Assembly: GCA_040755995.1 (NCBI GenBank) | Contig: JBFMAF010000013.1 | Coordinates: forward strand, 69,123 to 133,122 | Direction: 5' to 3' | Length of the DNA stretch: 64,000 bases | Source: Acidobacteriota bacterium | GTDB lineage: Bacteria; Acidobacteriota; CAIWXX01 | Part shown: in pieces, positions 43,104-61,913 of the stretch | How positions within the stretch are numbered: the first letter of the stretch is position 1 | Layout of the letters: each line of letters starts with the position of its first letter | Notes under the pieces: generated by a model | The model's database searches: none | The model's input: only the letters and a program-made list of their open reading frames with translations | Told to the model about the DNA's origin: nothing | Program-made: the position numbers and the translations under genes

Positions 43104-43140
43104 TTGACCCGGGCCACGACGTGACCTATAATGTGTCACG
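43104..43140 (+). promoter_or_regulatory. sigma70 promoter and inverted-repeat operator of the second TA module
   Basis: TTGACC (43104-43109), 17 bp, TATAAT (43127-43132); CGTGAC-N9-GTCACG palindrome straddles the -10. Confidence 0.75.
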
Positions 43141-43151
43141 GAGAATGGCAC

Positions 43152-43646
43152 ATGGTGGAAATATCGACTCGAGAGCTCAAGGCCAACCTGGCGAAATATC
43201 TGAAGTTGGTAATGCGGGGAAGGCGCGTGCGTGTGCTGAATCACGGGCACGCCGTCGCCGATATCGTTCCATCATCAAAGACCACTCCGACCGTGAGATT
43301 CTACGCGGTCACCAACGGTGTTGTCGAGGAATCGACAATACACAGCACGGAAGTTGACTGGCACAACGTGCTGCTCATTCAAGCAGTGTCTGAGACGGAA
43401 GCTCTCAAGATCGAACGGGATTTCGGCGAAGGAAAGATCCGACCAGCCGAACGGTACTGCCGCCGGTGCTTGACGACGCATCGCTTTCTGACGAGGCAAG
43501 CGCAGCCCACCACTTCTTCGATACAGATGGTCGGGGGAACCAGGATCACGCTATCTAACAAACGGTTCCAACTCCCGGATCCTGTGACGCCGAGAGGGGA
43601 TGGCCCTACAGCGGCGCGGATGATAGTTGAGGGCCGGAGCAGATGA
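43152..43646 (+). CDS. Phd/YefM-family antitoxin, unusually long with an inserted segment
   Basis: ISTRELKANLAKYL..V..G..V.V.NHG.AVA.IVP at the N-terminus; ends MIVEGRSR with an ATGA overlap to the toxin; 164 aa. Confidence 0.8.
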   Translation: MVEISTRELKANLAKYLKLVMRGRRVRVLNHGHAVADIVPSSKTTPTVRFYAVTNGVVEESTIHSTEVDWHNVLLIQAVSETEALKIERDFGEGKIRPAERYCRRCLTTHRFLTRQAQPTTSSIQMVGGTRITLSNKRFQLPDPVTPRGDGPTAARMIVEGRSR

Positions 43647-44110
43647 ACCTCTACCTGGACAGTTCGGCGTTCGTGAAACTCTTCCTCACCGAGGAGTTCT
43701 CGGAGGAGGTACGGGAGGCCACTGTGCAAGCGACTCGCCTCTGCACATCACGTCTGGCCTGGCCTGAAACGGTGTCGGCATTCGCGCGCATGTGTCGTGA
43801 AGACAGAATCACTCAGTATGAGTTCTTTCGGCTCATGGACTGCCTGGGCAGCCGCTGGCAGGAGATCAACGCTGTGGTTGAGGTTGACGCTAATCTCCTG
43901 AGTGACACACCGCTCCTGATGCTGGCGCACCCGCTGAGGGCCCACGACGCCATCCATCTGGCGAGCGCGAAAGCATTCGCAAAGATCGTGGATGATGATC
44001 TGCGCTTCGCAGCTTACGACGAGGCTCTGGCCAGAGCAGCACATGCGTCCGGGTTCGACGTGCTATCCGATCCAAGATGGAAACTGTTTGGGGGAACTCA
44101 CTCGGTTTAG
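43643..44110 (+). CDS. vapC: PIN-domain (VapC-family) toxin
   Basis: LYLDSSAFVKL, WPETVSA, LRAHDAIHLASA, AYDEALARAA. Confidence 0.9.
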   Translation: MNLYLDSSAFVKLFLTEEFSEEVREATVQATRLCTSRLAWPETVSAFARMCREDRITQYEFFRLMDCLGSRWQEINAVVEVDANLLSDTPLLMLAHPLRAHDAIHLASAKAFAKIVDDDLRFAAYDEALARAAHASGFDVLSDPRWKLFGGTHSV

Positions 44111-44167: not shown

Positions 44168-46072
44168 TCAGGGAGAATCGCCGATCGGACCGGTTGTCTG
44201 CCGGGGCAGGACGCCTTGCCCGTGGACGCCCGCGCCCCGGAGCTCCTCGTATTGCTGTGCCACGAAAAGGCGCCGGTAAAGGCCGTCCCGGGTCATCAAC
44301 TCTTCATGCGTTCCATCCTCGACCAATCGCCCGCGGTCGAGCACGTAGATCCGATCGGCCTGGGTCACCATCGAGAGGCGATGCGCGATTATCAGAAGGG
44401 TCCGGCCACGACAATACTCCGCGATTCCAGCCATCATCGCCTCCTCGGTCCTGCTGTCCACGTCGTTTGTGGCCTCGTCAAGTACGAGCACCTCTGCATC
44501 GAGAAGAAGAGCGCGGGCAAGAGCTACACGGCGGCGCTGACCCGCAGATAGGCGAGTCCCCCGATCCTGCAAAACAGTCGAATAGCTGTCCGGCATCGCG
44601 GCGATGAAATCGTGAGCTTGCGCCAGCCGGCATGCCGCAATGACCTGGCTGTCTGTTGCATCCGCACGAGCGAAACGCAGGTTCTCCATCGCGGTCGCAT
44701 GAAACAAGAAGACGTCCTGGGTCACCACGGCCACCCGCCTTCGCCAGCTCGTGATCTCCAGCTGACGAAGGTCGATGCCGTCCACTTGAATCATCCCATC
44801 CGTCGGATCATAGAGGCGCGAGACGAGATTCACCAAGGTTGACTTGCCCGCACCCGATGGACCAACCACGGCGACCCGGTGCCCACGCGGTATGGTGAAG
44901 TCGAGACGATCGAGGACGAGCGGCTCGTCGCGCGCATATCGAAACGACACCCCCAGGAATCTCACCGAGTCGCAAAGCGAATCGAAGACGATCGATCCGC
45001 CGCTCGGCGCCACCGGGCTCGTCGTGCCGATGGTCTCCGTCAGGGTATGCAGCATCGGAGCGACCTGGGCAACCTGCGTGTGCAGGCTGGTCAGGATTCC
45101 GGCCGGCCCCATCAACCGAATTGCGATGACCAGGAAGATCCCCAAGAGGGCGGGGACTGTGTGTGTCGATAGGGGAAGGAACAAAGACCCCACGGCCAGG
45201 ACAGCGGCAAGAAGAGAGAGATTCAGCGCGTTGAAGAGCGGGCGCGCGAAACCGCCGATGGCCGAGGCGCGGTATTCCTGCGCAAGAAGCGCCTGACTAT
45301 GCTGCGCGAACGTGGCATGGCTCCAGTTCTCTCGGCCGAAGACGCGCACGAGCTTCATCCCGGCCAACAGCTCTTGAACCGCAGCCTGTGTCTCGCGAAT
45401 GTTGTCATGGAGCTTCCTGCTGGCCTTCCGCAGGCGCACCGCTATCGCGGGGCGCAGCAGGAAGCTCACGGGGGCAAGCAGCAACAAGCTGAGGATCGTC
45501 AGGCGCCACGACAGAGCCAGCGCGAGCACCACATAGCTCACCATCACCGCGATACTCGCGGCCGCCTGCCCGGCCTGGAGAACCAAGGCCCCGACGCTGC
45601 GGACGAATGAGTCGAGCAACGCCGTCAGGCTCCCGCGGCGCTCGCGCAGAAAGGCATCGAGCGGCATTTCGGAAAAACGGCGGAAGACGGCCTCCTGCAG
45701 CGTGCGCTGGACGTGCTTTCGCAATTGAAGCGACGCCATGGTCTGTGCCAATTGCAAGGAGGCCCTGAAAAGCGCGAACAAAATCAAGGCGGCGGCCGCC
45801 AGTCGGATTCGTGACCCAACCGGCAGGCTCGATGCATGCCGGGCGATCTCCGTCAGCCAGGTCCCTTCCGGCACCGCGGCATCCCGCCCGGCGGCCAGGA
45901 GAATGAACACGCTGCCGATCCCGATTGCTTCGCCAGCCACCTGAAGGGCAGCCGTGACCACGAGCAGCGCGAGCAGGCCGCGATGGGGCTGCATGAGTGC
46001 AAGCAGTTGAACCAGACACCTGGTGGATGATGGTCGAGCGTCAGGCGATGCAGAGAGCTGTTCGTTAGTCAT
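44168..46072 (-). CDS. ABC exporter, fused permease and ATPase (MsbA-like)
   Basis: Transmembrane domain, GPSGAGKST, LSAGQ, VLVLDEAT, IAHRLS. Start uncertain. Confidence 0.9.
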   Translation of the reverse strand: MTNEQLSASPDARPSSTRCLVQLLALMQPHRGLLALLVVTAALQVAGEAIGIGSVFILLAAGRDAAVPEGTWLTEIARHASSLPVGSRIRLAAAALILFALFRASLQLAQTMASLQLRKHVQRTLQEAVFRRFSEMPLDAFLRERRGSLTALLDSFVRSVGALVLQAGQAAASIAVMVSYVVLALALSWRLTILSLLLLAPVSFLLRPAIAVRLRKASRKLHDNIRETQAAVQELLAGMKLVRVFGRENWSHATFAQHSQALLAQEYRASAIGGFARPLFNALNLSLLAAVLAVGSLFLPLSTHTVPALLGIFLVIAIRLMGPAGILTSLHTQVAQVAPMLHTLTETIGTTSPVAPSGGSIVFDSLCDSVRFLGVSFRYARDEPLVLDRLDFTIPRGHRVAVVGPSGAGKSTLVNLVSRLYDPTDGMIQVDGIDLRQLEITSWRRRVAVVTQDVFLFHATAMENLRFARADATDSQVIAACRLAQAHDFIAAMPDSYSTVLQDRGTRLSAGQRRRVALARALLLDAEVLVLDEATNDVDSRTEEAMMAGIAEYCRGRTLLIIAHRLSMVTQADRIYVLDRGRLVEDGTHEELMTRDGLYRRLFVAQQYEELRGAGVHGQGVLPRQTTGPIGDSP

Positions 46073-46278
46073 TGATGAATGGGGACGAACCAATGTTGAG
46101 GGGCTCGGCGCAATCACGCCTCGTCGCAACCCTGTGCCCTTCGGTCCGGAACATGAGCGGCCTCTGCATGGCGTGACTATATTCAGGCGGGCTTCCTCTC
46201 GCAAGACACGCGCTCACTTCACGAAATCAGTCAAACGGAGGGATGCAAAATGCGCGAACATGCCCTAGGATATCCGTC

Positions 46279-49191
46279 ATGGACCACCGGGCGGAAGGCG
46301 TGACCGATTCGGTTGTGGGTCAAGGCCCGGCGGGGACGCTCACCGCCGCATTCCAAGCTCAGGCGGCACGGAAGCCGCGGGCCGTTGCGGTTGACTGCGA
46401 TGGCATCAGGCTGACTTATGGAGAGCTCGATTCCATCTCGAACGCATTGGCCGCCGCCATCGCAGAGCGGCACGGGATTTCAAATGCTCCGATTGCTCTC
46501 CTATGTCCTCATCGTCCGGATGCCGTCCTCGGAGTCCTGGCGATACTGAAGGCGGGGAAGTGCTTTGTCCCTCTGAACCCGGCGAGTCCAGCAGAGTATC
46601 TCAGGCGAATCTGGGTGCATTCGGGCGCATCGGCTATCCTGGCCGGCGCCGGGGAATCCTCGCTCGTCCGGGAAGTCTGCGGGACCATGGACCTATGTAT
46701 CCCGCTGGAGTCTCTTGCCTCATCGCGCTATGCCGCGCCGCCGCCTCTCGATCCGGATCCCGAGCGACTTGCGGCGATCGTGTACACCTCGGGCTCGACG
46801 GGAGAGCCCAAAGGAGTAATGACAACGCACCGGAGCATCTTGATGCGAGTGCAGCATCACGCCCGGGTCGCAGCGTACGGCTCATCGGATCGCCAGGCAT
46901 CGATTGTCTACTGGGGCTACAGCGCGTCCTTCCCTGATATCTTCGGAGCTTTGCTGCATGGCATAACGCTGCTGCCTTTCGACACGGCAGCGAGAGGTAT
47001 TGGCGGATTCATTAGTTGGCTGGAAGAGCAGAATGCTACTCTACTGCAGCTCCCGGCTGCCCTCGTTGCCGGAATTCTGGACACGGTGGTTGCCCGGAAG
47101 CGCCGCCTTCGCCGTATGCGACTGGTATACGTGAGCGGCGGCCGGCTGTACCGTTCGGAGGCTCTCGGGCTGTGGAGGGTCTTTCCGCGGGCGCGCCTGC
47201 TGCATGGATATGGCTCATCCGAGGCCAACCTTGTGGCGCAGCACGGCATGCAACCCGGCCAGGCCCCCGTCGGCGATCCGCTGCCAGTAGGCAGCGTCGT
47301 GACGGGAAAGCGGGTGATGGTCGTCGACATTTTCGGCGAAACCGTTCCCGACGGGGTGATCGGCGAATTGGTGGTGGTGAGTGACCACTTGTCGCCGGGC
47401 TACTGGCGCGATCCAGCAGCGACCGAGTCATCGTTTCGCGCGACGTCTGCCGGGCAGCAGCCGTTCTTCCACACCGGGGACCTGGGCTGCTATCGGCCGG
47501 ACGGGCTGTTGGAACTGGCGGGTCGCAAGGACTTCGTTGTCAAGATCCGGGGGAATCGGGTGGATACAGAGGACGTTGAGGCGCGTCTCAAGGCATCGAG
47601 GCGGGTCAGGGAGGCCGCGGTCGTCGTTCATCGCAGGAAGTCGGGCGAAGCCGTTCTGATTGCCTACATAGTGCCGAGGCCAGGGGCAGAGGTGGCGCCG
47701 AAGGACCTCCGTGAGGAGATGGAGAAGACTTCGCCGCCGTACATGGTGCCGAGCCGGCTCATCGTCATGGACGCTCTTCCGTTGACCGCGAGCGGCAAGG
47801 TGGACCGTCGCGCTCTGCCGCCTCCCTACAAGGTGCGTCCCTCAATCCGTGTGCAGTTCCGACCGCCCGAGAACGAGGGGCAGAAACTGGTCTGCCGGGT
47901 GTGGGCCGATCTTCTTGAAGTGCCGGAAGTGGGATTGGACGACGACTTCTTCGACTTGGGCGGCGATTCCCTCAGTGCCATGATGATGCTGGCACAGGTG
48001 GAGCACCTCCTGGAGACGCATGTGCCTCTTGCATTCTTCGAGACCCCGACGGTGTCGGGTCTCTTCGCCATCATACGCTCCGATCGGTCGTCAGAATCCC
48101 CGCCGCGCCCCGCGGAGTCACAGCCTGGAAGCACAGCCTTCGAGCACCCAGCAAGGGATTGGCAACACACGTTTCGAGGCGCCAGGGACTGGCTGCATGC
48201 CTTCGCCGGGAGGCCGGACAGGGTCGCAAGGCTCATGGAGCTCGCGCCGTCATTCGCCGCGATGCTGATGCCGTATAGGGCCGGCTGCCGGTGGCTTGCC
48301 TGGTGCTGTTCTCACGACGGTTTCGTCGAACGCACATACGGCAGCGACTACCACCTCTTCCGCCGCTTTCTGTCCGATTTCGGCTGCAGCATCTCGGACC
48401 CACTGGCCGCCTTCCGGGTCAGTCTCTTGGGAAATCTCGCAATGCTTTCGACGTTCCAGCGACTGCATATTCCGGCGGAGTTGTCGGGCCGGCTCCTGGA
48501 GGTGCTCAAGGCCTCGCCGTTGCCGTTTCGCCGCTCGGCCGGAAGGTTGATTGAGCAAGGGGATCGGGACGAGCTTCGAAAGTGGTTTCAGTTTTCCGGG
48601 CTGCAGTCTGTCGAGGAGATGCTGGCGTTGAGGCACGGAGTGATCCTGCTCTCTTATCACGGCACGGGACAGATCCTGGCATCGAGGGCGCTGCAGCGCT
48701 TTCTCGACGACAGCCCGATCAAGTTCCTCAGCCGCTACGCCAGTCGCAAGCGGGCGCAGCTGCGAATCGGGAATGGCGGCTCAGCGAAGACGGCCGCGGA
48801 AGTAATCAGAGACACAGTCGCCGCACAGCGACACCTGGAGAGGGGAGGGCTGGTGCAGATCGTGCTCGAGAGTTCTCCGAGTCGCAGCGCCATCGCATGT
48901 TCTGTTGGTGGGCGGCTCTATCATCTCGAGCCGGGCTTCGCCCATTTGTCTCTTTCAACTGGAGCAGCGATCATTCCCTGGCACGCCTATTATGACGACC
49001 GCGGCTGCGTTCAGGCGCGATTCCAGCCCCGGCTCACAGTAGAAATCGACACCGACCACGAAGCCCAGGCCGCCGCCCTGACACGAAGGTACGCCCTGCT
49101 CTTGGAGTCGACCTGGCGCGAGGTGCCCCAGTCCATGGATTGGCGACTCATCGACACCCATTATTCGTTGCCGAGGGCCGATCCTCCTTAG
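46279..49191 (+). CDS. NRPS-like protein: adenylation domain, carrier domain, C-terminal lipid A acyltransferase-like (LPLAT/LABLAT) domain
   Basis: YTSGSTGEPKG, YGSSE, FHTGDL, SGKVDR; FFDLGGDSL. C-terminal GLQSVEE...GVILLSYH...LERGGLVQIVLE...PGFAHLSLSTGAAIIP...PQSMDW resembles the LpxL family. Start is between 46243 and 46300. Confidence 0.8.
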   Translation: MDHRAEGVTDSVVGQGPAGTLTAAFQAQAARKPRAVAVDCDGIRLTYGELDSISNALAAAIAERHGISNAPIALLCPHRPDAVLGVLAILKAGKCFVPLNPASPAEYLRRIWVHSGASAILAGAGESSLVREVCGTMDLCIPLESLASSRYAAPPPLDPDPERLAAIVYTSGSTGEPKGVMTTHRSILMRVQHHARVAAYGSSDRQASIVYWGYSASFPDIFGALLHGITLLPFDTAARGIGGFISWLEEQNATLLQLPAALVAGILDTVVARKRRLRRMRLVYVSGGRLYRSEALGLWRVFPRARLLHGYGSSEANLVAQHGMQPGQAPVGDPLPVGSVVTGKRVMVVDIFGETVPDGVIGELVVVSDHLSPGYWRDPAATESSFRATSAGQQPFFHTGDLGCYRPDGLLELAGRKDFVVKIRGNRVDTEDVEARLKASRRVREAAVVVHRRKSGEAVLIAYIVPRPGAEVAPKDLREEMEKTSPPYMVPSRLIVMDALPLTASGKVDRRALPPPYKVRPSIRVQFRPPENEGQKLVCRVWADLLEVPEVGLDDDFFDLGGDSLSAMMMLAQVEHLLETHVPLAFFETPTVSGLFAIIRSDRSSESPPRPAESQPGSTAFEHPARDWQHTFRGARDWLHAFAGRPDRVARLMELAPSFAAMLMPYRAGCRWLAWCCSHDGFVERTYGSDYHLFRRFLSDFGCSISDPLAAFRVSLLGNLAMLSTFQRLHIPAELSGRLLEVLKASPLPFRRSAGRLIEQGDRDELRKWFQFSGLQSVEEMLALRHGVILLSYHGTGQILASRALQRFLDDSPIKFLSRYASRKRAQLRIGNGGSAKTAAEVIRDTVAAQRHLERGGLVQIVLESSPSRSAIACSVGGRLYHLEPGFAHLSLSTGAAIIPWHAYYDDRGCVQARFQPRLTVEIDTDHEAQAAALTRRYALLLESTWREVPQSMDWRLIDTHYSLPRADPP

Positions 49192-49337
49192 ATTGTCGCG
49201 GTGCCGGCATTGAGGTGCGTGGGAGAGTCCCCGGACGACGAATTGACACGATAACGCATTAAGAGGTAATTGTTGACGTCGATCCTGTTTCGGCAGTGGG
49301 GACAACTCGGGGAGGCATTTTGCAGGCAGGTGGTCTC

Positions 49338-51050
49338 ATGTCGGGTACGAATGAACCGCAGGTCAGCCCCTTCTTGATCGGACTCGCCGTCGGCGAAGGC
49401 ACCGGGCCGGAGCTGGCCTTGGTCTTCCGTCGTGCCGTCGAGGTACTGGCCGCAGCGTTCGGAATCGATGCGAAGATCATCGCTTGCCCGCAGCGCCTTC
49501 GCACCTTTGGGGCCTTGATGAAGCGGGGGCTGCCGACATCCGAGGTGGTACTGATCAAGGACGAGGACTGCATACGATACGAGGGATTCCTGCGGGATGT
49601 CTACGGCGAGGGTTGCCGGGTCGTGTTCCGCACCGCGATCAATGCAGAGAGCCTGTATCAGGTCAGGGAGCGGCTGCGCGGGGTGAAGATGGAGGTGATC
49701 CCGACACCGTACGGCGAGCTGTTTCTCGTTCGCGATGCGGCCCAGGGATTCTATACGGGCAGCAATGACACCGGTGATCGCAACATCATCCGGCGGACGT
49801 GCGAGTTCCGCCGTGACTGGACCGAACAACTGCTCGACTACGCGCATGCCGCCGCGGCCGCGCACTGGGGCGGCCCGCAAGGGATCGATCACTTTCTGCT
49901 CGCCTATAAGTTCCACCTGCTTGACAACCGGTTTGCGCAATGGGTCGACGAGTATTCCCGCTCGCGCAACCTCACGCTGGAGTTGTTTCAGCCCGACACG
50001 ATGAATCGCCATCTCTTGCGCGGGACCTACCACGGGCGCCTGCTCATCGTCGGCGCCAACGAGTGGCTCGATATCGCGCACCTGGACCTGCTGGCTCGCT
50101 ACGGCATGGGGCCGCAGGAGAATCGCCACAGCCGCAACGTGTACCTTGCGCGCGGCGTCGAAGGGCTGGTCGAGTACCAGACCGTGCACGGTTCTGCAGA
50201 CGACATCGCCGGCCGGGGCCTCGTGAACCCGGTCGCGACTTTGCGTGCGGCCGCCGACCTGTTCGAACACCACGGCCGCTGCGCCGGAGCCGTCGTCCGC
50301 ATGCACAGGGCGATCGAACGCAGTCGCGCGCGCGGACTGGCCACGCCCGACCTTGGCGGCCACAGCACCACCGATGACTTTGCGGCGGACATACTCGACT
50401 GCTTTCGCAGCAGCTCGCAGCCGCCGCCGGCAAGGGATACGGCGCTGCTCGTCGTGGACATGCAGAACGACCTGTGCGCACCCGGCGGGTGTTTCGACCG
50501 CCTGGGTCTGATCGACTGCGGCGCGATGCAGGCGCTCGCGAGCCGCATCGCGGAGCTGATCGAGTGGAGCCGGCGGCATGGCCTCGATGTCATTTTCACC
50601 CGCATGCTCGCCGATCCTGAACGGCAGCCGGAGAACATGGTCGAACGCAATCGGCGCCTGGGGCGGATTGACTACCTGCGCGAGGGCCATTGGGGCGCGG
50701 ATTTCTTCGGAGTCTCGCCGATGCCCGGCGAGCCGGTCGTGACGAAATTCTGCTACGACGCGTTTCTCGGCACCGAGCTTGAGCGCCGGCTGCACAGCCA
50801 TGGAGTGCAACGCCTGCTGTTCGGAGGCGTCTTCACCGACGTTTGTGTCGATGCCACGGCGCGCACTGCCTTTCAGCTTGGATTCCGAATCGCGATCGTG
50901 CGCGACGCAACCGCGCCGCTGCACTATTCTCTAGATCAGACGCTGGCATTCATGGAACAGATCTACGGCGCGCAATCGTTGGCCTTCGCCGAGCTGCCGG
51001 ACCTATTGCGTACGAACGGAGCAGCGTGCACCCGGGCTGGCGCGACATAG
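49338..51050 (+). CDS. fusion of an isocitrate/isopropylmalate-dehydrogenase-like domain and an isochorismatase-family cysteine hydrolase
   Basis: GEGTGPE, VRD..QGFY, HGSADDIAG..VNP.ATL, TPDLGG; then LLVVDMQND, TKFCYDAF, TDVCVDATAR (D-K-C triad). Confidence 0.82.
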   Translation: MSGTNEPQVSPFLIGLAVGEGTGPELALVFRRAVEVLAAAFGIDAKIIACPQRLRTFGALMKRGLPTSEVVLIKDEDCIRYEGFLRDVYGEGCRVVFRTAINAESLYQVRERLRGVKMEVIPTPYGELFLVRDAAQGFYTGSNDTGDRNIIRRTCEFRRDWTEQLLDYAHAAAAAHWGGPQGIDHFLLAYKFHLLDNRFAQWVDEYSRSRNLTLELFQPDTMNRHLLRGTYHGRLLIVGANEWLDIAHLDLLARYGMGPQENRHSRNVYLARGVEGLVEYQTVHGSADDIAGRGLVNPVATLRAAADLFEHHGRCAGAVVRMHRAIERSRARGLATPDLGGHSTTDDFAADILDCFRSSSQPPPARDTALLVVDMQNDLCAPGGCFDRLGLIDCGAMQALASRIAELIEWSRRHGLDVIFTRMLADPERQPENMVERNRRLGRIDYLREGHWGADFFGVSPMPGEPVVTKFCYDAFLGTELERRLHSHGVQRLLFGGVFTDVCVDATARTAFQLGFRIAIVRDATAPLHYSLDQTLAFMEQIYGAQSLAFAELPDLLRTNGAACTRAGAT

Positions 51051-51057
51051 TGCCAAG

Positions 51058-53697
51058 ATGCCGCCGTTTCCGAAGATCGACGCGTCATGCCAGCCGCCGA
51101 TTCCACGCTCGGCCGTCGATCGTACGATCGGCGCGGCCTTCGCCGAGTCTGCTGCTCATGCCGGCGACAGCCCGGCGGTCAAGATGGGGGAGAAGGCCCT
51201 CAGCTACGGCGAACTCGACTGTCTCTCGAACCGGCTTGCTCACGCCCTGAGCCAGTTCTCCGAAGGCATTCAACAGCGTGTGGCGCTGTTGATCGAAGAC
51301 CGCATACAGCAGGTCCTCGCCATGCTCGGCGTCCTGAAGGCCGGACATCTTTTCGTGCCGCTCGCGACTACCGACCCTCCAGCGCGGCTGGCGTCGCTGA
51401 TTACAGATGCGCAGCCCGCATGCGTGATCACGGATGCGGGCGGGGCCGAGATCGCAAGGCAGGCCGCGCAGTCGCTGCCGCGTCTGGAGCTCGGGGCGCT
51501 CGATTCGACGCCGGTAGAATTTCTGTCGCCGGTTGAACTGACCCCCTCGGCCTGCGCCTGTCTCATCTACACATCGGGCTCCACCGGCCGTCCCAAGGGA
51601 GTGCTTCAGACGCATCGCAACATCCTGCACCACGTCGCGAAGTACACACGCACAATCGGCCTGACTCGCGCCGACCGGCTCACCTGGCTCACGAGCTACG
51701 TGTTCGCCGCATCCATATCCGACGTGTTTCCCACCCTGCTCAACGGCGCCACGTTGTTGCCGTACGCGATCGAGCGGAGGGGCTTTGCTGAGCTCGGTTC
51801 CTGGCTGCGCGCGGAACGCGTGACGATCTACTACTCGGTGCCCTCAGTGCTCCGGCGACTGGCGGCACAAGAGCGCGACGACACGAGATTCTCTGAGGTG
51901 CGCCTGGTGCGCCTCGGCGGTGAGTCGCTGCGCGCAACTGACGTCGAGATCTTTCGGCGGCTGTTCGGACGGCGTTGCCGGATGCTCAATTCACTCGGCG
52001 CGACTGAAATCAACCTGATCCGCCATTTCTTCGTGGACGCTGACACCCCGCTCACTGATGCTACCGTGCCCGCGGGCTATGAGGTCGAGGACACCGAGGT
52101 ACGGCTGATCGATGAGCAGGGACGGGACGTCTCGCCAGGTTGTATCGGCCAGATCGCCGTTCGCAGCCGATACTTGAGCCCCGGTTACTGGCGCCAACCC
52201 GAGCTGACGCAAGCCACGTTCCTGGCGGATGCCGGGGACCCGGAGCTTCGTACATATCTTACCGGGGATCTCGGCCGCATGCTGCCGGACGGCTGTCTGG
52301 TTCACCTCGGGCGCATCGATCGACGGGTCAAGGTGCATGGACGCAGCGTGGATCTGCAGGAGGTCGAAACAGCCATCGCACGCCTCGACCTGCTCGAGGA
52401 CGTGGCGGTGGTCGACGTGAGCGGGGCGGGGGATGACGATGGGGTGATGCTTGTGGCCTACCTGGTCGGCCGCGGTGCGACGCGCCGCGATTCCGCCGCA
52501 CTGCGCGCGCAGCTCGCCAGAACGCTGCCCGCGCACATGATGCCCCTGCGCTTCATCTACGTCGATACGCTGCCGCTGACCAGTACCGGCAAGATCGATC
52601 GGCAGGAGCTGCGGAGACGCGCGATCGAGCAGCCGGTGTCGCGGGCGGGAGCGCAAGCGCCCCCGCGTGACGCGACAGAGAGCGCCCTGGTCCAGCTGTG
52701 GGAGGGATTGCTCAAGGTGCGCCAGATCGGCATCACCGACAACTTCTTCGATCTCGGCGGCGACTCGCTGCTCGCCCTGAGGATGCTCGATGAGGCGCAG
52801 CGCCTGTTCGGTCGCGCAGTATCGCCGAATGAGTTCCAGAAAGCGCCGACTATACGGGGACTTACCGACATCGGTCGCCGGGCTCAGCCGGCCTGCGCGG
52901 CAGCGGTGATCGTGGCAGTCAAGGCGGCGGGCACGCGTGCCCCATTGCTGCTCGTTCCAGGAGCCGGTTCGGACGTGCTCGCACTTTCAAATCTCTGCCG
53001 GCACATCGATGAGGCGCAGCCGCTGTACGGGCTGCGCATGCCCGGCCTGGTTGAGGGCGAGAAGCCGCTCGATCGGGTCGAGGCAATCGCGGCATACATC
53101 GTGACGGCGCTGCACCGTGAAGGTGCCATCCGGCGTTTCAAGGTCGGCGGGGTGTCGTTCGGCGGGCTGGTGGCGCTTGAGATCGCGCAGCAGCTCCAGA
53201 TCTCCGGCGAACCGGTGGATCACGTCTACCTGCTGGACACCGCCGCACCGCGGTATCCCCGGCGCCGGTGGATCGCCGGATTTCGCCACCCAATCCGGCT
53301 TGTTCAAAGCCTGATCCTGCCGCCCGGCGCCCGAGACCTCTTCACCCGGGAGAGACTTGAGCTCGGATGGAGAGACAGGCGGTCGCGCCTCCAGGCTCGG
53401 CTCGCTGCAATCAGGCAGAGCTGTGGAGGCCGCCGGATGTCGGCGCTCGACCGGCGAATGCTGCTGCAGGCCTCGTGCTTCCGAGCGGCCGACTGCTATC
53501 GGCCCTCTCGATACGACGGCGCCGTGACGCTGCTGCGGGCCGATCGCCAGCCTCCGCCGGACCAGTACGATTCTGACGAGCGACTGGGATGGGGAGATCG
53601 TCTCCCACGTCTCCGAGTGGTTGCAACGCCTGGCGGACACAACGATCAGTGGCAGGGCATCGCGGTCCCGGCCGTGGCGGCGGTATTGTCGGAATAG
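51058..53697 (+). CDS. NRPS-like A-T-TE protein
   Basis: YTSGSTGRPKG, SLGATE, YLTGDL, TGKIDR; FFDLGGDSL; thioesterase GVSFGG...LLD...PGGH. Confidence 0.88.
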   Translation: MPPFPKIDASCQPPIPRSAVDRTIGAAFAESAAHAGDSPAVKMGEKALSYGELDCLSNRLAHALSQFSEGIQQRVALLIEDRIQQVLAMLGVLKAGHLFVPLATTDPPARLASLITDAQPACVITDAGGAEIARQAAQSLPRLELGALDSTPVEFLSPVELTPSACACLIYTSGSTGRPKGVLQTHRNILHHVAKYTRTIGLTRADRLTWLTSYVFAASISDVFPTLLNGATLLPYAIERRGFAELGSWLRAERVTIYYSVPSVLRRLAAQERDDTRFSEVRLVRLGGESLRATDVEIFRRLFGRRCRMLNSLGATEINLIRHFFVDADTPLTDATVPAGYEVEDTEVRLIDEQGRDVSPGCIGQIAVRSRYLSPGYWRQPELTQATFLADAGDPELRTYLTGDLGRMLPDGCLVHLGRIDRRVKVHGRSVDLQEVETAIARLDLLEDVAVVDVSGAGDDDGVMLVAYLVGRGATRRDSAALRAQLARTLPAHMMPLRFIYVDTLPLTSTGKIDRQELRRRAIEQPVSRAGAQAPPRDATESALVQLWEGLLKVRQIGITDNFFDLGGDSLLALRMLDEAQRLFGRAVSPNEFQKAPTIRGLTDIGRRAQPACAAAVIVAVKAAGTRAPLLLVPGAGSDVLALSNLCRHIDEAQPLYGLRMPGLVEGEKPLDRVEAIAAYIVTALHREGAIRRFKVGGVSFGGLVALEIAQQLQISGEPVDHVYLLDTAAPRYPRRRWIAGFRHPIRLVQSLILPPGARDLFTRERLELGWRDRRSRLQARLAAIRQSCGGRRMSALDRRMLLQASCFRAADCYRPSRYDGAVTLLRADRQPPPDQYDSDERLGWGDRLPRLRVVATPGGHNDQWQGIAVPAVAAVLSE

Positions 53698-53761: not shown

Positions 53762-54496
53762 ATGCTCGTGACCCCGCTGCGCCAGATCGAGATAGCGATT
53801 CTGGCGATCTGGGCGGTCGTGCTTGTCGCGGCGTTCGCATTCGGGCAGCTCAGCGCCGATCACACGCGACATTCGATCCGGCCGCTGCTGATGGTGACCT
53901 CGGCTCTGCTGGTCCTGCTTGCGCTGCTCTGGTGGCTCGCGCCGGTCTCCGGCGCGCGTTCCGTGCCACAGAGCGTCTCTCTGCTGATTTTCCTGGGGAT
54001 GCTCTTCGGCTTCCTGGGCGATCTCATCATGGCCGACATACTGCGGACTCCCGACCGCGTCATCTTCGGAATCGGCTCGTTCGGCATCGGTCACGGGTGT
54101 TACATCGCTGCGTTTCTGCTGGCGTTGCGCGCGATTCATGCTCAAAGCGGGCGAGTCAATTGGATCGTCATGGCGTCTCTGGTGCTCCTGGGCATCGTGT
54201 TGTGGACCGGCCTGGTGAGGAACCCGGACAAGCCCCTGCCGCTCAACCTGGCGGCACTCGTCTATACGCTGCTCATCTGCATCATGGTTGCCTTTGCGAT
54301 CTCGCTGGCACTCGCGGTGCCACGGCTCTGGTACCTCGCGCTGGGCGCACTGCTGTTTCTGGCTTCAGACGCTATCCTGGGGAATCAGATCTTCAGGGAC
54401 CATCAGTGGTTCCTGGTCAGCGACGTCGTCTGGGTGACCTACATCGTCGGCCAGCTTCTGATCGTCCGATCGAATGCAGTATTGAAGTGTTTGTAG
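53762..54496 (+). CDS. YhhN/TMEM86 (lysoplasmalogenase-like) membrane protein
   Basis: About 8 TM segments; LGDLIM, FGIGHGCYIAAF, GALLFLASD, WVTYIVGQ. Confidence 0.78.
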   Translation: MLVTPLRQIEIAILAIWAVVLVAAFAFGQLSADHTRHSIRPLLMVTSALLVLLALLWWLAPVSGARSVPQSVSLLIFLGMLFGFLGDLIMADILRTPDRVIFGIGSFGIGHGCYIAAFLLALRAIHAQSGRVNWIVMASLVLLGIVLWTGLVRNPDKPLPLNLAALVYTLLICIMVAFAISLALAVPRLWYLALGALLFLASDAILGNQIFRDHQWFLVSDVVWVTYIVGQLLIVRSNAVLKCL

Positions 54497-54521
54497 AATG
54501 ACCTGTTGAGGAGGCCTCATC

Positions 54522-54827
54522 ATGTTGATCGTGATTGTCTACGCCTGCGTGAAGCCTGAATTCGTCGATGCCTTCCGGGCCGCTTCGATCGAGAACGCGC
54601 AGAACAGCGTCCTGGAACCCGGCATTGCACGGTTCGACGTCGTCCAGCAGATCGACGATCCGACACGGTTTGTCCTGATCGAGGTCTATCGTGATGAACA
54701 GGCGCCTGGGCGCCACAAGGAGACGGCGCACTATGCCCGGTGGCGCGGCACAGTGGCGCCGATGATGGCCGAGCCGCGCACGAGCTCGAAGTGGCGCAAC
54801 TGTTTCCCGGACGAACAGGATTGGTGA
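54522..54827 (+). CDS. antibiotic-biosynthesis-monooxygenase (ABM/LsrG-like) domain protein
   Basis: VKPE.VDAF...EPGIARFDV...FVLIEVY...HKETAHY..W; GAGGAGG RBS. Confidence 0.85.
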
Positions 54828-54884
54828 CTGACGAGGAGCGGATGAAGGTGATCGAGCGGACCAACGATTTTGCCGGAGTCCCCG

Positions 54885-56039
54885 ATGCGGTTTGAGTTCG
54901 CCACCGCGAACCGGATCATCTTCGGAGACGGGTGCCTGCGGCAGGTCGGTGACCTGACCGTCGAGCTCGGCCGGCGGGCCCTCGTCGTTACGGGAAACAG
55001 CGTCAGCAGGGCCGTTCCGCTGCTCGAGATCCTCTCGGTCTATCAGGTGGGCTACGTGGTGTTCCCGGTTGCCGGAGAGCCCACCGTCGACGTCGTGCGG
55101 GAGGCGGCGGACATAGCGCGCGAGCGCACCTGCGATCTGGTGATCGGATTCGGCGGGGGCAGTGCGCTGGATGCGGGCAAGGCCGCATCCGCATTGCTCA
55201 CCAACCCGGGGGATCTCATGGACTACCTTGAGGTCATCGGTCGCGGTCAGGCGCTTCCGCAGCCAGCCGCTCCGTACGTGGCCATTCCGACTACCGCGGG
55301 CACCGGCACCGAAGTCACTCGGAACGCCGTCCTGGCGTCGCCGGATCACGGCGTCAAGGTCAGTCTCAGGAGCCGGCTCATGGTGCCGAGGGTGGCGCTG
55401 GTCGACCCCGTGCTGACGCACAGCATGCCGCCCGAGATCACGGCGAGCACCGGGATGGATGCGCTGACGCAGTTGATCGAACCATACGTGTCCGCAAAGG
55501 CGACTCCGATAACCGATGCGCTGTGCGTCGAGGGCATCCGGTTGGCGGCCCGATCGCTACGCCGCGCGTGCGAGCATGGTGATGATGCGATCGCGCGGTC
55601 GGACATGGCTCGGGCGAGTCTTTTTGGTGGAATGGCGCTCGCGAACGCTTCGCTTGGCGCCGTTCACGGTTTCGCCGCCGCGATCGGCGGTGCCACCGCG
55701 GGGCCGCACGGAGCGGTGTGTGCGCGGCTGCTGCCGGGTGTGGTCGAGGCGAACTGGCGAGCTTTGACTGAGCGGGCAAGGGGAAGCGACGCGCTGCGTC
55801 GATACCGGGAAGTCGCAAGAATACTGACCGGCGACTCGATGAGTACCGCCCAAGACGGCGTCGAATGGCTGTATCGGCTGTGCGAAGACCTGAAGATTCC
55901 GCGACTGCGAGCTTATGGGTTGACTCTCCAGGACCTTGCTGGAATCGTCGACAAGTCGGCCAAAGCAAGCAGCATGAAAGGCAACCCGATCCAGCTAACC
56001 ACCAGCGAGATGATGGCGATTGTGGAGAGGGCACTGTAA
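54885..56039 (+). CDS. iron-containing alcohol dehydrogenase
   Basis: GGGSALD.GK, IPTTAGTGTE, GMDALTQ, LGAVHG, PHG.VC, GNP. Confidence 0.92.
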   Translation: MRFEFATANRIIFGDGCLRQVGDLTVELGRRALVVTGNSVSRAVPLLEILSVYQVGYVVFPVAGEPTVDVVREAADIARERTCDLVIGFGGGSALDAGKAASALLTNPGDLMDYLEVIGRGQALPQPAAPYVAIPTTAGTGTEVTRNAVLASPDHGVKVSLRSRLMVPRVALVDPVLTHSMPPEITASTGMDALTQLIEPYVSAKATPITDALCVEGIRLAARSLRRACEHGDDAIARSDMARASLFGGMALANASLGAVHGFAAAIGGATAGPHGAVCARLLPGVVEANWRALTERARGSDALRRYREVARILTGDSMSTAQDGVEWLYRLCEDLKIPRLRAYGLTLQDLAGIVDKSAKASSMKGNPIQLTTSEMMAIVERAL

Positions 56040-57811: not shown

Positions 57812-57903
57812 CTGACGCCCGATCCTTGTTCGAACGATACCGTTGAGGTATCGTGTCGATTGGTCAGCGCCTCCGCGCGACCTCAGGAGGTTCTCGGAGA
57901 ATC

Positions 57904-59568
57904 ATGACGCGGCCCAACGGGTATCCTATCGTTCTCTCAGCCCCTTTGACCGAAATCGTAGACAACCCGGGCTTCTTCATTCAGATGGGACTGGCGTCCC
58001 TGCCCGGCTGGATGGAATGGGCCATCACGAGGACCTATCCCCGCTGGCGAGAGGTTCCCGTGGAGCCTGGCGGCACCGCGGGCGTCGCCCCGTGCGGCTT
58101 GCGAACGCTCGAGAACGTGCTCGGGAAGACGTTCGGTACTGATAACGTGGCCGTGTGCTATCCGGATGGGCTCGGTGCTTTCATCGGACCGGATACGCGC
58201 GTCGTCGCAATCTCGACGCACAATCCTCTCGGAACAACATTTGCGGCCGGCGTCTACGCCTCGATCTTCGGCTCGAGCAAAGATCCTATCAACGCCGTCT
58301 ACGCGCGGCGAATGTTTGAGAACGTGAAGGCAAGCCCCCATCGGGAGAGCTTCAGAGTCATCGTGGGGGGCTCGGGCGCGTGGCAAATCCAGGAGACGAG
58401 CTCGCTCGATGATCTTGGTGTCGACTGTGTCGTGGAGGGACGCTCCGAATCGCCGGAGGTGCTCGACGTCTTCAGGAAGGCCCTCGCGGGAGAGCCCATC
58501 CCGCGCGAGATCCGTGGGACCCACCCAATAGATCCTGATGCAATTGCGGTTCCGGTCAAGCGCACGACGTTCGGCGTCATCGAGATGACGACGGGTTGCG
58601 GCCGGCGCTGCGCGTTTTGCGCACCCGACAACAGCCCTCGAATCGACGTCCCCAAAGAAAAGATCATGGCGGCGGTGAAGGCAAACGTCGAGGCGGGCAA
58701 TGACCAGATTTCGCTCGCTACCGAAGACATGTTCATCTGGGGATCGGGCCGTGCTTGCTTTGTTCCGAATCGCGAGGCGCTCATCGACATCCATTCGTCG
58801 ATTGCGGGCTACCCGGGCGTGCGCCACGTTCTGCTCTCGCACGGGACAATGGCGCCGGTGGTTGTCGACCCGGCGCTCATTCGAGAGCTTTCGGACATCC
58901 TTCTGGACAAGAGTCCCCTGGAGCTTCCGCAGGTTTCGACTCACCCTAGGGGGCGGGTCTTGAGCCCGCTCATCGGTATCGAAACCGGCTCGCCCCGGCT
59001 CGCGAAGAAGCTAATGCCGGGGAAGGCACTTCCCTTCGACATCTCGGAGTGGCCGAGCGTCGTCATCGAGGGGCTCACGATCCTGAACAGGAACAACTGG
59101 ATCCCGGTCATGACGCTCATCGTGGGCTCACCGGAGGAGACCGGCGAGGACATCGAGGCCACGCTCGATCTTCTGTACGAGATGGAGCGGCGGAGCCTCA
59201 AGGCGCTTCTCGTGCCGTCGATCTTCACGCCGCTCCGCGACACTCGCATGCGGAACAGGCGCGGGATTACGCGCACCAGGGGGATTTCGCAGCTCCAGTG
59301 GCAGCTCATCATGAAGTCGTGGCAGATGAGTGCGCGCATCGGGCTACAGACCGGGTGGGTTCGTACGGCGTGGCCCCTGGGCTCCTACCTCTTCTGGGCC
59401 CTCCAAGGCAGACGCGCCAACGGACCGAACTTCACCTGGCCCCTCTTCCTCTTTGCCGGTTTTCCAGAAGCCCTGCTCAGGAAACTCGGCGGGCTCTATC
59501 GCGGAGTCCCGCTACAGCTCAAGCACCGCGACGAGCTCTTCGCGACGGGCAATCACACGATGCGGTAG
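57904..59568 (+). CDS. radical SAM protein with putative N-terminal B12-binding-like domain
   Basis: EMTTGCGRRCAFC (CxxxCxxC), IVGGSGAW, IGIETGS, TLIVGSPEET. Confidence 0.82.
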   Translation: MTRPNGYPIVLSAPLTEIVDNPGFFIQMGLASLPGWMEWAITRTYPRWREVPVEPGGTAGVAPCGLRTLENVLGKTFGTDNVAVCYPDGLGAFIGPDTRVVAISTHNPLGTTFAAGVYASIFGSSKDPINAVYARRMFENVKASPHRESFRVIVGGSGAWQIQETSSLDDLGVDCVVEGRSESPEVLDVFRKALAGEPIPREIRGTHPIDPDAIAVPVKRTTFGVIEMTTGCGRRCAFCAPDNSPRIDVPKEKIMAAVKANVEAGNDQISLATEDMFIWGSGRACFVPNREALIDIHSSIAGYPGVRHVLLSHGTMAPVVVDPALIRELSDILLDKSPLELPQVSTHPRGRVLSPLIGIETGSPRLAKKLMPGKALPFDISEWPSVVIEGLTILNRNNWIPVMTLIVGSPEETGEDIEATLDLLYEMERRSLKALLVPSIFTPLRDTRMRNRRGITRTRGISQLQWQLIMKSWQMSARIGLQTGWVRTAWPLGSYLFWALQGRRANGPNFTWPLFLFAGFPEALLRKLGGLYRGVPLQLKHRDELFATGNHTMR

Positions 59569-59632
59569 CCCCCCGGATAAGGCGACTAGAGTCGATGTCT
59601 CGAGCGGTCGGCAATCGCACGGCCAGTGGTAC

Positions 59633-60496
59633 CTACGATGATGCCTTCCTCTCTTCGCGTGCCCGGACAAGACGGGGAGGGGAGAAGAGCAGCTTCCAGC
59701 GAACGGCGTTCCAATAGCCCAGAGCCAGGAGAGCAAGCAGAGCAAGGCAAGTGACTTGCGCGAAGGTCAGTGGACCAAAGGCAATTCCACCGGCATCATC
59801 CCGGACGAGCTCCAGGAAGAATCGAAACACCGTGTAGATGACGCAGACGATGATGTAGAGCTGGCCGTTGAACTTCCGGCGCGGCCATAGATCGCGCGCC
59901 AGCCAGAAGAGCCCGAGGCCGAGTGCCGATTCGTAGAGCTGGGTGGGGTGAACGGGCAGCGACCAGGAGACGTCGGGAGAGATGAGTCCCAGCGCCACGT
60001 GTCTGTTGAATGCGGGAGAACCGGCAGGGAAGCGCAGACCCCACGGGAGACTCGTAACGCTGCCGTAGTTGCAGCCCGACATGAAACAACCGAATCGAAT
60101 CAGGCACAGCATCAGCATCAGTCCGTAACCGGTAGCGTCGGCGAACAGGCCGAGTGACAGATTCGTGGGATGAATGCAGAGCAGCCCGAAGAGCGCTACC
60201 GCTACCATGGCCCCGAAGAGGCTGTACCCGCCTGCGACCAGCAGGGAGTCGAGCGGACGAGTGTAGATGGACCGCGGATCGTACTGCAAGAGGTAGCCGA
60301 TCTTCGCTCCGGCCATGGCAACGACGAGGGCTGGGACAAGGATCAGTAGTGCACGCCCGCGAGTCCACCCGTCGCTTCGCGCTTTGCCGGAAATCACCCA
60401 ACAGCCGATCGCCATCGAAATCACGAGCATCACGGAGTAGTCGGGGACCAGTATCCACGCCCACTGAGGCAGGTGGATCAGGAATGCGTTTCGCAT
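59633..60496 (-). CDS. prolipoprotein diacylglyceryl transferase (Lgt)-family homologue
   Basis: RFGCFMSGCNYG...LPWG..FP, PVHPTQLYES, Y..FRFFLE.VR.D. Confidence 0.82.
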   Translation of the reverse strand: MRNAFLIHLPQWAWILVPDYSVMLVISMAIGCWVISGKARSDGWTRGRALLILVPALVVAMAGAKIGYLLQYDPRSIYTRPLDSLLVAGGYSLFGAMVAVALFGLLCIHPTNLSLGLFADATGYGLMLMLCLIRFGCFMSGCNYGSVTSLPWGLRFPAGSPAFNRHVALGLISPDVSWSLPVHPTQLYESALGLGLFWLARDLWPRRKFNGQLYIIVCVIYTVFRFFLELVRDDAGGIAFGPLTFAQVTCLALLALLALGYWNAVRWKLLFSPPRLVRAREERKASS

Positions 60497-60515
60497 TTCG
60501 GCTACAGGCGGCTCG

Positions 60516-61913
60516 CTAGGGTATCACAGGTCTCCCCATTGCCGCCGTCTCGTTGCTGTTTCTGTAGGCACGCACTCGCTCGTCCAACTCGGTGCACCAT
60601 CGACTGATCCACCTCCTCGGCAGATGCAGGTATCGGGGCATGTATGAGGGGCGAAGATAGAAGCGGGCATACGCGGCGCCGAGGAGATACGTGAGCTCGT
60701 TTGCGCTGAGCTTCTCGAGCCCGTACGTAGGATGATAGCCGTCGAACTTCTCCCAATCAGTCTCGGTGATGAGATGCTCGCATCTCTTCCATAGGGGAGT
60801 GCCCGGGTAGGGGGTGAGAATCTTGAATTGGGCGAACGTGGGTGCGATGTCCATGGCGTACTTGATTGTTGCACCAATCGAATCCCAGTCGTCTTCGGGG
60901 AATCCGAGCAGAAACTGACCCGCGGTCGCGATCCCCATGCGATAGCATTCGGAAAGGAGATGCCGCTGGTGACTAACGTCAATCGGCCGTCTCCCGGCCT
61001 TTTTCAGGACGGCATCCGAGGCCGACTCGCCTCCAAACGTCAACATCCTGAGTCCGGCACGGTGCATGAGCCGGAGGAGCTCGACGTCGAGGCGATCCAG
61101 GCGGGTCTCGCATTCGAAGCGAATCCTGAGTCCTCCAGACAGTATGCGCTCGCATATCTCCGCTGCCCACTCGCGCCGGGCGGTGAACTGGGGGTCCCTG
61201 AATGCGACGAACGGCCGTTGGTAGAATCGAAACAGGTGCGACAGCTCATCGACGACGTTTGACACGGTGCGCGCGCGGTAGCCGGCGAGCACGCGATGGG
61301 GACAATAGACGCAGTGCTCGGGACAGCTTCGGCTGGCAAGTACCGGCACACCTCCACCTATCGGCTTATGATGGAAGGGGAAATGAAATCGCTGTGCGTG
61401 CCCATTTCCTGCGATGTCCCAACGTGGGAAGGGGAGCGAGTCCAGGTCGTCGATCGACGCGCTCTCGCAGATTCCGGAAAGCTCGGCGCCGCAGGCCGCA
61501 CTGCGTATGGCCCTCTCGGGCTCACCTCTGACCAGAAAATCCGCGTGCTCACGGAAGAGCTCGGGGAGGAAGGAGGCAGCAAGGCCGACGAAACCTACGC
61601 GCAGTCCCTTCCTCCTGGCCGCGTCCGCCCAGGCACATTCGTTGCGGGAGTCCACGATGGATGAGAGCACGATCGCAACATCGCCTTCAGGAACGCCGTC
61701 GCGCGTGAAGAGGACCTCGTGTCCCTTCTCGGCCAGGATTGCCGCCAGGTAGGCCAGCTGAATGCTCGGGATATCATGGAACAGCTTCTTGAAGTGGGAG
61801 TAGAGCCTGGTCGTGATCGAGAATGGCACCATTCTCGATCCGTACCCGCCGACAACGGTGTCCTTGGCGACAAGGCCGCGCGTACCGCGGAGATCAGCGA
61901 GCACGTACCTCAT
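60516..61913 (-). CDS. B12-binding-domain-type radical SAM protein
   Basis: GEPE, DLDSLPFPRWD, ASRSCPEHCVYC, CETRLD, FGGESAS, FLLGFP, TPYPGT. Confidence 0.85.
   Translation of the reverse strand: MRYVLADLRGTRGLVAKDTVVGGYGSRMVPFSITTRLYSHFKKLFHDIPSIQLAYLAAILAEKGHEVLFTRDGVPEGDVAIVLSSIVDSRNECAWADAARRKGLRVGFVGLAASFLPELFREHADFLVRGEPERAIRSAACGAELSGICESASIDDLDSLPFPRWDIAGNGHAQRFHFPFHHKPIGGGVPVLASRSCPEHCVYCPHRVLAGYRARTVSNVVDELSHLFRFYQRPFVAFRDPQFTARREWAAEICERILSGGLRIRFECETRLDRLDVELLRLMHRAGLRMLTFGGESASDAVLKKAGRRPIDVSHQRHLLSECYRMGIATAGQFLLGFPEDDWDSIGATIKYAMDIAPTFAQFKILTPYPGTPLWKRCEHLITETDWEKFDGYHPTYGLEKLSANELTYLLGAAYARFYLRPSYMPRYLHLPRRWISRWCTELDERVRAYRNSNETAAMGRPVIP

Follow-up and report, generated by a model that had tools for sequence, protein, structure and literature searches.

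Activation, carrier and acyltransferase functions are combined in one chain in Aas. In Vibrio cholerae, the adenylation enzyme AlmE activates glycine and loads the carrier AlmF, and the LABLAT homologue AlmG passes the acyl group on to lipid A in the envelope (PMC4278540). Here we describe a gene carrying an equivalent set of an adenylation (A) domain, a carrier (T) domain and a LABLAT-type acyltransferase (L) domain in a single chain (A-T-L), located in a 64,000-nucleotide stretch of an Acidobacteriota genome (assembly GCA_040755995.1, contig JBFMAF010000013.1, positions 69,123 to 133,122 of the forward strand; hereafter the window, with coordinates counted from its first letter). The A-T-L proteins are a recurring, uncharacterised family. 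On balance, and with a modest preference over the opposite, we believe that they are self-loading enzymes that attach a non-amino acid by an ester bond to a sugar, carried by a glycolipid of the membrane or a lipid-linked glycan and not by lipid A, after which the product is exported.

Several described systems share parts of this arrangement. Besides being one chain rather than three proteins, A-T-L differs from AlmE-AlmF-AlmG in an A-domain clade without the Asp235 residue, in contrast to the glycine-activating AlmE, and in the apparent lack of lipid A in many of its hosts (AlmG being compared here by its description rather than its sequence). The mycobacterial acyltransferase PatA (PDB 5f2z, 5oce), the best structural match of the L domain, acts on a sugar hydroxyl, as is proposed for L, but it is a stand-alone enzyme with a palmitoyl-CoA donor and an acid kept at the fifth position after its histidine (+5), and shares only 16–18% identity with L (PMC8519569). 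VexE of Vi capsule synthesis, also compared by description, is an LPLAT dependent on acyl carrier protein (ACP) that lacks the +5 acid, needs a His/Asp pair and acylates a sugar within a glycan locus with ATP-binding cassette (ABC) export; it differs in its fusion to tetratricopeptide repeats, in drawing a beta-hydroxy fatty acyl-ACP from central metabolism, in its UDP-GlcNAc acceptor and in having no loading module of its own (PMC9597891). Fusions of a fatty acyl-AMP ligase (FAAL) to a lysophospholipid acyltransferase have been noted in print (PMC8460268, PMC12820801); these also place activation, carrier and acyltransferase in one chain, but with LPAT/AGPAT (PlsC-like) domains and fatty acids, as opposed to the LABLAT/PatA branch and the mostly nonribosomal peptide synthetase (NRPS)-type loaders found here. 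We found no paper on an NRPS-type A-T-PF03279 fusion in a listing-level search that covered few subscription papers; Table S1 of PMC12820801 may list the FAAL form.

Results

Domain composition of the fusion

The original prediction of an adenylation-carrier module fused to a domain of the lipid A late-acyltransferase type was borne out by one frame of 982 amino acids (aa), in which Pfam recognises AMP-binding (37–388), AMP-binding_C (445–519), PP-binding (549–607, with GGDSL and Ser576) and, over aa 774–949, Lip_A_acyltrans (PF03279; E 1.6e-6, 28 bits against a cut-off of 22.3); the LpxL-family landmarks quoted in that prediction are all present in the translation. NCBIfam models matched the C-terminal part far under their cut-offs (PatA, E 1.3e-6; lipid A lauroyl acyltransferase, E 0.003). 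The features of an NRPS A-T module are in place (YTSGSTG, TGDL, catalytic Lys519, carrier Ser576), the best solved relatives of the A domain are NRPS A domains, and TIGR01733 scored 278.6 bits, under its cut-off of 317.4. A phosphopantetheinyl transferase gene is encoded in the host genome. The fusion is not an assembly artefact, because a fused orthologue with 70% identity occurs in G002, a genome of the host's family.

Database records start the gene at ATG 46279, the first ATG of the frame being 46243. In the region 46237–46303, a GGAGGG directly abuts ATG 46243 and sits 7 bases ahead of an out-of-frame ATG at 46250, where a 17-codon frame begins that runs across the probable start at 46279 (possibly by chance). 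Promoter and terminator scans gave counts at chance level.

Fold and active site of the acyltransferase domain

An LPLAT fold had been anticipated for the C-terminal domain, and an AlphaFold model of aa 660–982 (pLDDT 92.9) agrees with it. The best solved match was PatA (Foldseek E 1.3e-9; VIA Z 19.9, rmsd 3.8, 229 residues aligned), followed by LpxM (Foldseek E 2e-7; VIA Z 18.1), with the next fold reaching only Z 8.3, and hhalign connected L with canonical LABLATs from related genomes at 99.6%. By this modelled fold and by profile comparison, the L domain belongs to the LABLAT/PatA branch (PF03279) of the LPLAT superfamily. It differs from canonical LpxL/LpxM in lacking both the HX4D/E motif and the N-terminal membrane anchor helix, in an extra helical segment and in the replacement of the RxxDNP segment, and it occupies a separate long branch, apart from the HX4D/E proteins with support 1.0 in a tree of 140 rows (one outgroup row coming from the unpublished genome G025). 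The domain is internal to the fusion, and no transmembrane helix was detected in it (maximum 19-residue hydropathy of 1.25 vs. 1.76 in the host's LpxL-like protein).

As expected, relatives keep the histidine: His806 is invariant in all 75 aligned rows, even though these share only about 25–30% identity. The absence of an acid at +5 in HGTGQI was also confirmed in the translation, and such an acid is present in just one of the 75 rows. The description of the motif as degenerate, however, has to be abandoned, since the partner acid sits elsewhere in the chain, at Glu876, a position occupied by D or E in 75 of 75 rows. His806 and Glu876 align with His126 and Glu200 of PatA, which act as general base and charge relay (PMC8519569), and in hhalign with the H and the D of LIDQ in canonical LABLATs. 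VexE carries Tyr at +5 and is still active, requiring the histidine and Asp532, the equivalent of Glu200 (PMC9597891). Given the conservation of the pair and the activity of VexE, His806 and Glu876 are the predicted catalytic pair of a site that is complete rather than degenerate. Since the +5 acid of LABLATs has been assigned to acyl-donor binding (PMC9597891), its loss would fit a changed donor.

Adenylation pocket and the probable donor

In the window A domain, Ser227 replaces Asp235 and Ser325 replaces the A5 proline, with catalytic Lys519 kept. Asp235 occurs in none of the 57 A domains of the main clade vs. 12 of the 13 other NRPS A domains of the host, and Pro325 in none of the 57 vs. 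10 of the 13. The loss of both residues is described for A domains that take hydroxy or keto acids (PMC11253843), and we infer from these replacements that the donor is a small carboxylic acid lacking the alpha-amino group, a 2-oxo or 2-hydroxy acid being the most likely. The Asp235 signature, which has exceptions, does not point to an alpha-amino acid (glycine) donor of the AlmE-AlmF-AlmG type. The pockets are highly diverse across the 57 domains (a basic residue at 299 or 322 in 24 of them), so that members probably load different acids.

The family of relatives

A HMMER search with the L domain over 1.84 billion representatives (E 0.001) returned 382 proteins; word-seeded single-sequence searches yielded only 2 and 1, and the family emerged only with the full search. 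Among 152 L relatives (the best 150 of the 382 and two found earlier), 84 also match the A and T domains of the window protein, and many of the others are fragments. Source records name the A-T-L relatives by their domains only. A tree of A domains divided 74 proteins of 900–1050 aa into 57 NRPS-type (the clade of the window protein), 14 FAAL-like and 3 Asp-shifted members; the window protein stands apart from the 14 FAAL-like proteins and has no PF23024 match, which speaks against a FAAL-type loader. Other architectures comprise a protein with an additional condensation (C) domain (C-A-T-L; P0079), two L stretches (P0069) and split A, T and L genes (L033). P0079 is the only one of the 150 best relatives (of 382) with a C domain. 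A search for longer forms gave 25 matches of 791–2255 aa, among which there was no C domain and no multi-module NRPS ending in L, the latter being weak evidence. The other idea put forward at the outset, a new NRPS release domain, is thus supported in part, by one relative, P0079, in which L would serve as the chain-release domain.

Further variation was seen across the family. In a small clade made up of P0135, P0101, P0137 and P0079, the Asp lies at position 236 instead (IDS/VDS), an arrangement that presumably resembles A domains of the beta-alanine type. In L028 (5248–10825), genes for an A-T-thioesterase (A-T-TE) and an A-T-L protein stand in tandem, with sister A domains and an identical pocket, to all appearances a recent release-domain swap. 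Split A, T and L genes accompanied by an exporter and a sulfotransferase occur in L033 (7634–12509) and L054 (Fuerstiella records and a metagenome); their A domain keeps Asp235 (FDVS), and this set is a closer analogue of AlmE-AlmF-AlmG than the window gene. FAAL-like-T-L versions were found in L039, L072, L075, L077, L078, L079, L022 and L023, some within glycosyltransferase clusters and others adjoining a separate acyl-CoA synthetase, with two in G050 of the host's phylum. Stand-alone L proteins lie near flavin halogenase-like genes in L052, which has an NMT1 importer, and in L036, which has A, T and sulfotransferases.

Distribution

Of 11 loci from named records, the 6 that carry the fusion are Chloroflexota, and the other 5 are Thiogranum, Chromatiales and Fuerstiella records with an unfused L. 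In the class of G062, an Anaerolineaceae record (class Anaerolineae), 11 of 251 genomes gave a match, and 8 of the 251 have frames of at least 900 aa carrying the L domain; three matches were dropped, G595 as a canonical HX4D protein and G546 and G521 as short frames. No lpxC was found in any of the 251 genomes. Because the family occurs in this class, and because Chloroflexi (Chloroflexota) are stated to lack lipopolysaccharide (LPS) genes (PMC8793728), lipid A is probably not the general acceptor. In the host's phylum, the A-T-L unit was detected in 2 of 401 genomes (E 1e-28; 5 candidates scored per genome). A broader tally of 53 of 61 genomes was set aside as not usable for the fusion, consisting almost entirely of ordinary LABLAT genes.

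Gene neighbourhoods of relatives

Ten loci of at least 10 kb with the NRPS-type fusion were compared (L027, L028, L030, L037, L039, L045, L071, L072/73, L076, L080; shorter loci excluded), the counts being made by hand on selected gene calls (77, 52 and 63 proteins scanned) and representing minima. An NMT1-type binding protein is encoded in 9 of these loci, sulfotransferases in 7, glycosyltransferases in 6 and a HepA-like exporter in 2. In a background test of five genomes, an NMT1 match lies within about 2 kb of the A-T-L gene in all five, vs. 2–6 matches per genome, and a sulfotransferase match within 8 kb in four, vs. 1–13 matches per genome. Binding proteins and A domains pair up: for 12 of 16 the nearest neighbour is shared, and a Mantel test gives rho 0.34 (p 0.002). 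Paralogous binding protein/A pairs are 65–69% and 47–59% identical across genomes vs. 38–39% and 35–36% within one. This co-variation is compatible with import of the donor but is no proof of it.

The gene cluster of the window

The unit that the window shares with G002, where it is partly inverted, has four genes: the ABC exporter, A-T-L, the dehydrogenase-isochorismatase fusion and A-T-TE (Table 1).

Table 1. Features of the A-T-L cluster (window coordinates)
Feature	Position	Strand	Remarks
HepA/MsbA-like ABC exporter	44168..46204	-	divergent from A-T-L; probable start near 45994
A-T-L fusion gene	46243..49191	+	982 aa from ATG 46243; 970 aa from ATG 46279
NRPS-type adenylation (A) domain	46351..47799	+	aa 37-519
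Carrier (T) domain	47887..48063	+	aa 549-607; phosphopantetheine Ser576 at 47968
LABLAT/PatA-fold acyltransferase (L) domain	48220..49188	+	aa 660-982; His806 at 48658, Glu876 at 48868
Dehydrogenase-hydrolase fusion	49296..51050	+	divergent isocitrate/isopropylmalate-type dehydrogenase and isochorismatase-family cysteine hydrolase; kept in G002
A-T-thioesterase partner	51058..53697	+	A domain in the same Asp235-less clade; kept in G002

The exporter is 80% identical to the G002 copy. Its closest relative among the loci comes from a Chloroflexota-class genome, where it stands beside the A-T-L gene of G490 (L072), with 52% identity vs. at most 43%, over shorter stretches, within the host. This similarity, together with the occurrence of the unit in just 2 of the 401 genomes of the phylum, suggests that the unit was gained sideways by the host's lineage.

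The dehydrogenase-hydrolase fusion was found whole only in G000 and, over two contigs, in G002; only weak partial matches appeared in G490, G064, G062 and G001, and it is therefore not family-wide. The best NCBIfam models for its hydrolase part, BiuH and RutB, score far under cut-off. Its dehydrogenase part belongs to the beta-decarboxylating family, whose members make 2-oxo acids, and the fusion is a candidate source of the donor acid.

Other neighbours were noted. After A-T-TE, genes for YhhN, ABM and Fe-ADH continue in the same direction (53762–56039), and further on (57853–61913) an Lgt-family gene lies between two radical SAM genes, of which one gave a weak B12-binding match; no test links these three genes to A-T-L. 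The YhhN, ABM, Fe-ADH and radical SAM genes were rejected as cluster members, as they do not follow A-T-TE in G002; the first three had no match in the related loci called by then. A Phd/YefM-like antitoxin and PIN toxin pair abuts the exporter (43131–44110) and possibly marks the edge of an acquired island.

Discussion

In the mechanism that we propose, the A-T-L protein would be cytoplasmic and probably membrane-associated. Its A domain would adenylate a small non-amino carboxylic acid with ATP, the substrate class being read from the pocket, and the acyl group would be loaded onto the phosphopantetheine of Ser576. His806, tuned by Glu876, would then deprotonate an acceptor hydroxyl for attack on the thioester, as in PatA and VexE. 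Judging from the neighbourhoods, the acceptor is probably not lipid A but a sugar on another glycolipid of the membrane or on a lipid-linked glycan, and the HepA/MsbA-like ABC transporter may export the acylated product. In Chloroflexota, the donor acid probably enters via the adjacent NMT1/SsuA-type importer; in the window, where there is no importer, it is probably a product of the dehydrogenase-hydrolase fusion, and the A-T-TE partner would repeat this loading module with another outlet.

A number of observations weigh against esterification of such a glycan. No glycosyltransferase, sulfotransferase or importer was found among the genes scanned or called in the window, and this lack of a glycan gene near A-T-L is the main weakness of a glycan acceptor for the window copy. 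No glycosyltransferase was seen in 4 of the ten long loci, nor in the loci of the fatty-acyl-ligase type L039, L074, L078 and L079. The five genomes of the background test were chosen after their loci had been seen, the relatives are not independent, and joint inheritance may be all that lies behind the co-variation of importer and A domain. With respect to the donor, amino acids can be taken without Asp235, as by McyG with Val in its place (PMC11253843), and the diversity of the pockets means that no single donor can be named. As for the acceptor, a point in favour of a sugar is that the F/Y-W pair of the family (54 of 75 rows each) aligns with Tyr83-Trp84 of PatA, which stack on the mannose acceptor (PMC8519569), but this alignment is weak taken alone (i-E 0.59), and the window protein has Arg763 at the Trp position. 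Finally, although lpxC and lpxB were not found in five fusion-bearing Chloroflexota genomes, which speaks against lipid A, the completeness of these genomes is unreported and a ribosomal control was detected in only three of them. In the host, lpxC, lpxK and a canonical LpxL-like gene are present outside the cluster, and it could offer lipid A.

Among the alternatives, a condensation-free small-molecule assembly is unlikely while retaining an appreciable chance. Here, A-T-L and A-T-TE would both load acids, L would act as a strict NRPS release domain that acylates a soluble acceptor (a polyol, an amine or the product of the partner), and the ABC transporter would export the result. Such a pathway would account for a unit that, as conserved between G000 and G002, consists of exactly the exporter, A-T-L, dehydrogenase-hydrolase and A-T-TE with no glycan genes, and it agrees with the A clade shared by A-T-TE and A-T-L (sister genes in L028), with the existence of the C-A-T-L protein P0079 and with the absence of a transmembrane helix from L. 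However, the characterised relatives considered (PatA, LpxM, VexE, AlmG) acylate sugars or glycolipids, most of the long loci sit among glycan genes, and C domains are as rare among the relatives as reported above.

We regard acylation of lipid A or LPS by the host enzyme as improbable. It would make A-T-L a fused analogue of AlmE-AlmF-AlmG with a non-glycine donor, the product being flipped by the MsbA-like neighbour, and it draws on the host's lpxC, lpxK and LpxL-like genes, on exporter scores to MsbA models (under cut-off) and on the same three-step logic in V. cholerae (PMC4278540). Against it stand the occurrence of the family where lpxC and lpxB were not found, the separation of the L branch from the HX4D/E LABLATs and the similarity of the exporter to a Chloroflexota-class protein rather than to those of the host. 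The analogy with AlmE-AlmF-AlmG drawn in the original prediction survives in its A-T-transferase logic, its LABLAT fold and its different donor, but finds no support as regards an amino acid, given an A domain without Asp235 and Pro325, or lipid A, given the hosts of the family.

It is very doubtful that the acceptor is a ribosomal peptide or a peptide-glycan conjugate: a set of PqqD, asparagine-synthase-like, HPr-kinase-like and nucleotidyltransferase genes, which we take to be lasso-type, occurs in 4 of the ten long loci (L030, L071, L072, L080) and in the short L050, but is absent from the other 6 and from the window, and we know of no LABLAT with a peptide acceptor. Least probable of all is an L domain that is catalytically dead or merely hydrolyses the thioester (editing or release of the free acid), as might be argued from the near-absence of the +5 acid, the replaced RxxDNP segment and the thioesterase side activity of LpxM, since the histidine and second acid are invariant across such divergent rows, VexE provides a precedent and the neighbouring A-T-TE gene already supplies a true thioesterase.

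Extending the preferred reading of a glycan-acylating, self-loading enzyme to the whole family, we propose, tentatively and as an idea that may well fail, that the A-T-L proteins are amine-blind, one-module NRPS-like enzymes with highly variable A domains and L as the release domain, which would each take a different acid from a paired importer of their own or a local pathway and link it as an ester to sulfated glycans of LPS-less Chloroflexota, the cassette having been passed sideways to other phyla such as that of the host. If true, NRPS logic would gain a release domain, and the range of the lipid A acyltransferase fold would grow to include donors that are neither fatty nor amino acids and bacteria that have no lipid A. 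An enzyme that selects and activates an acid and transfers it to a sugar, all in one soluble chain, would be easily assayed and may be an attractive biocatalyst. For the Chloroflexota, it would provide a concrete handle on their poorly known surface chemistry.

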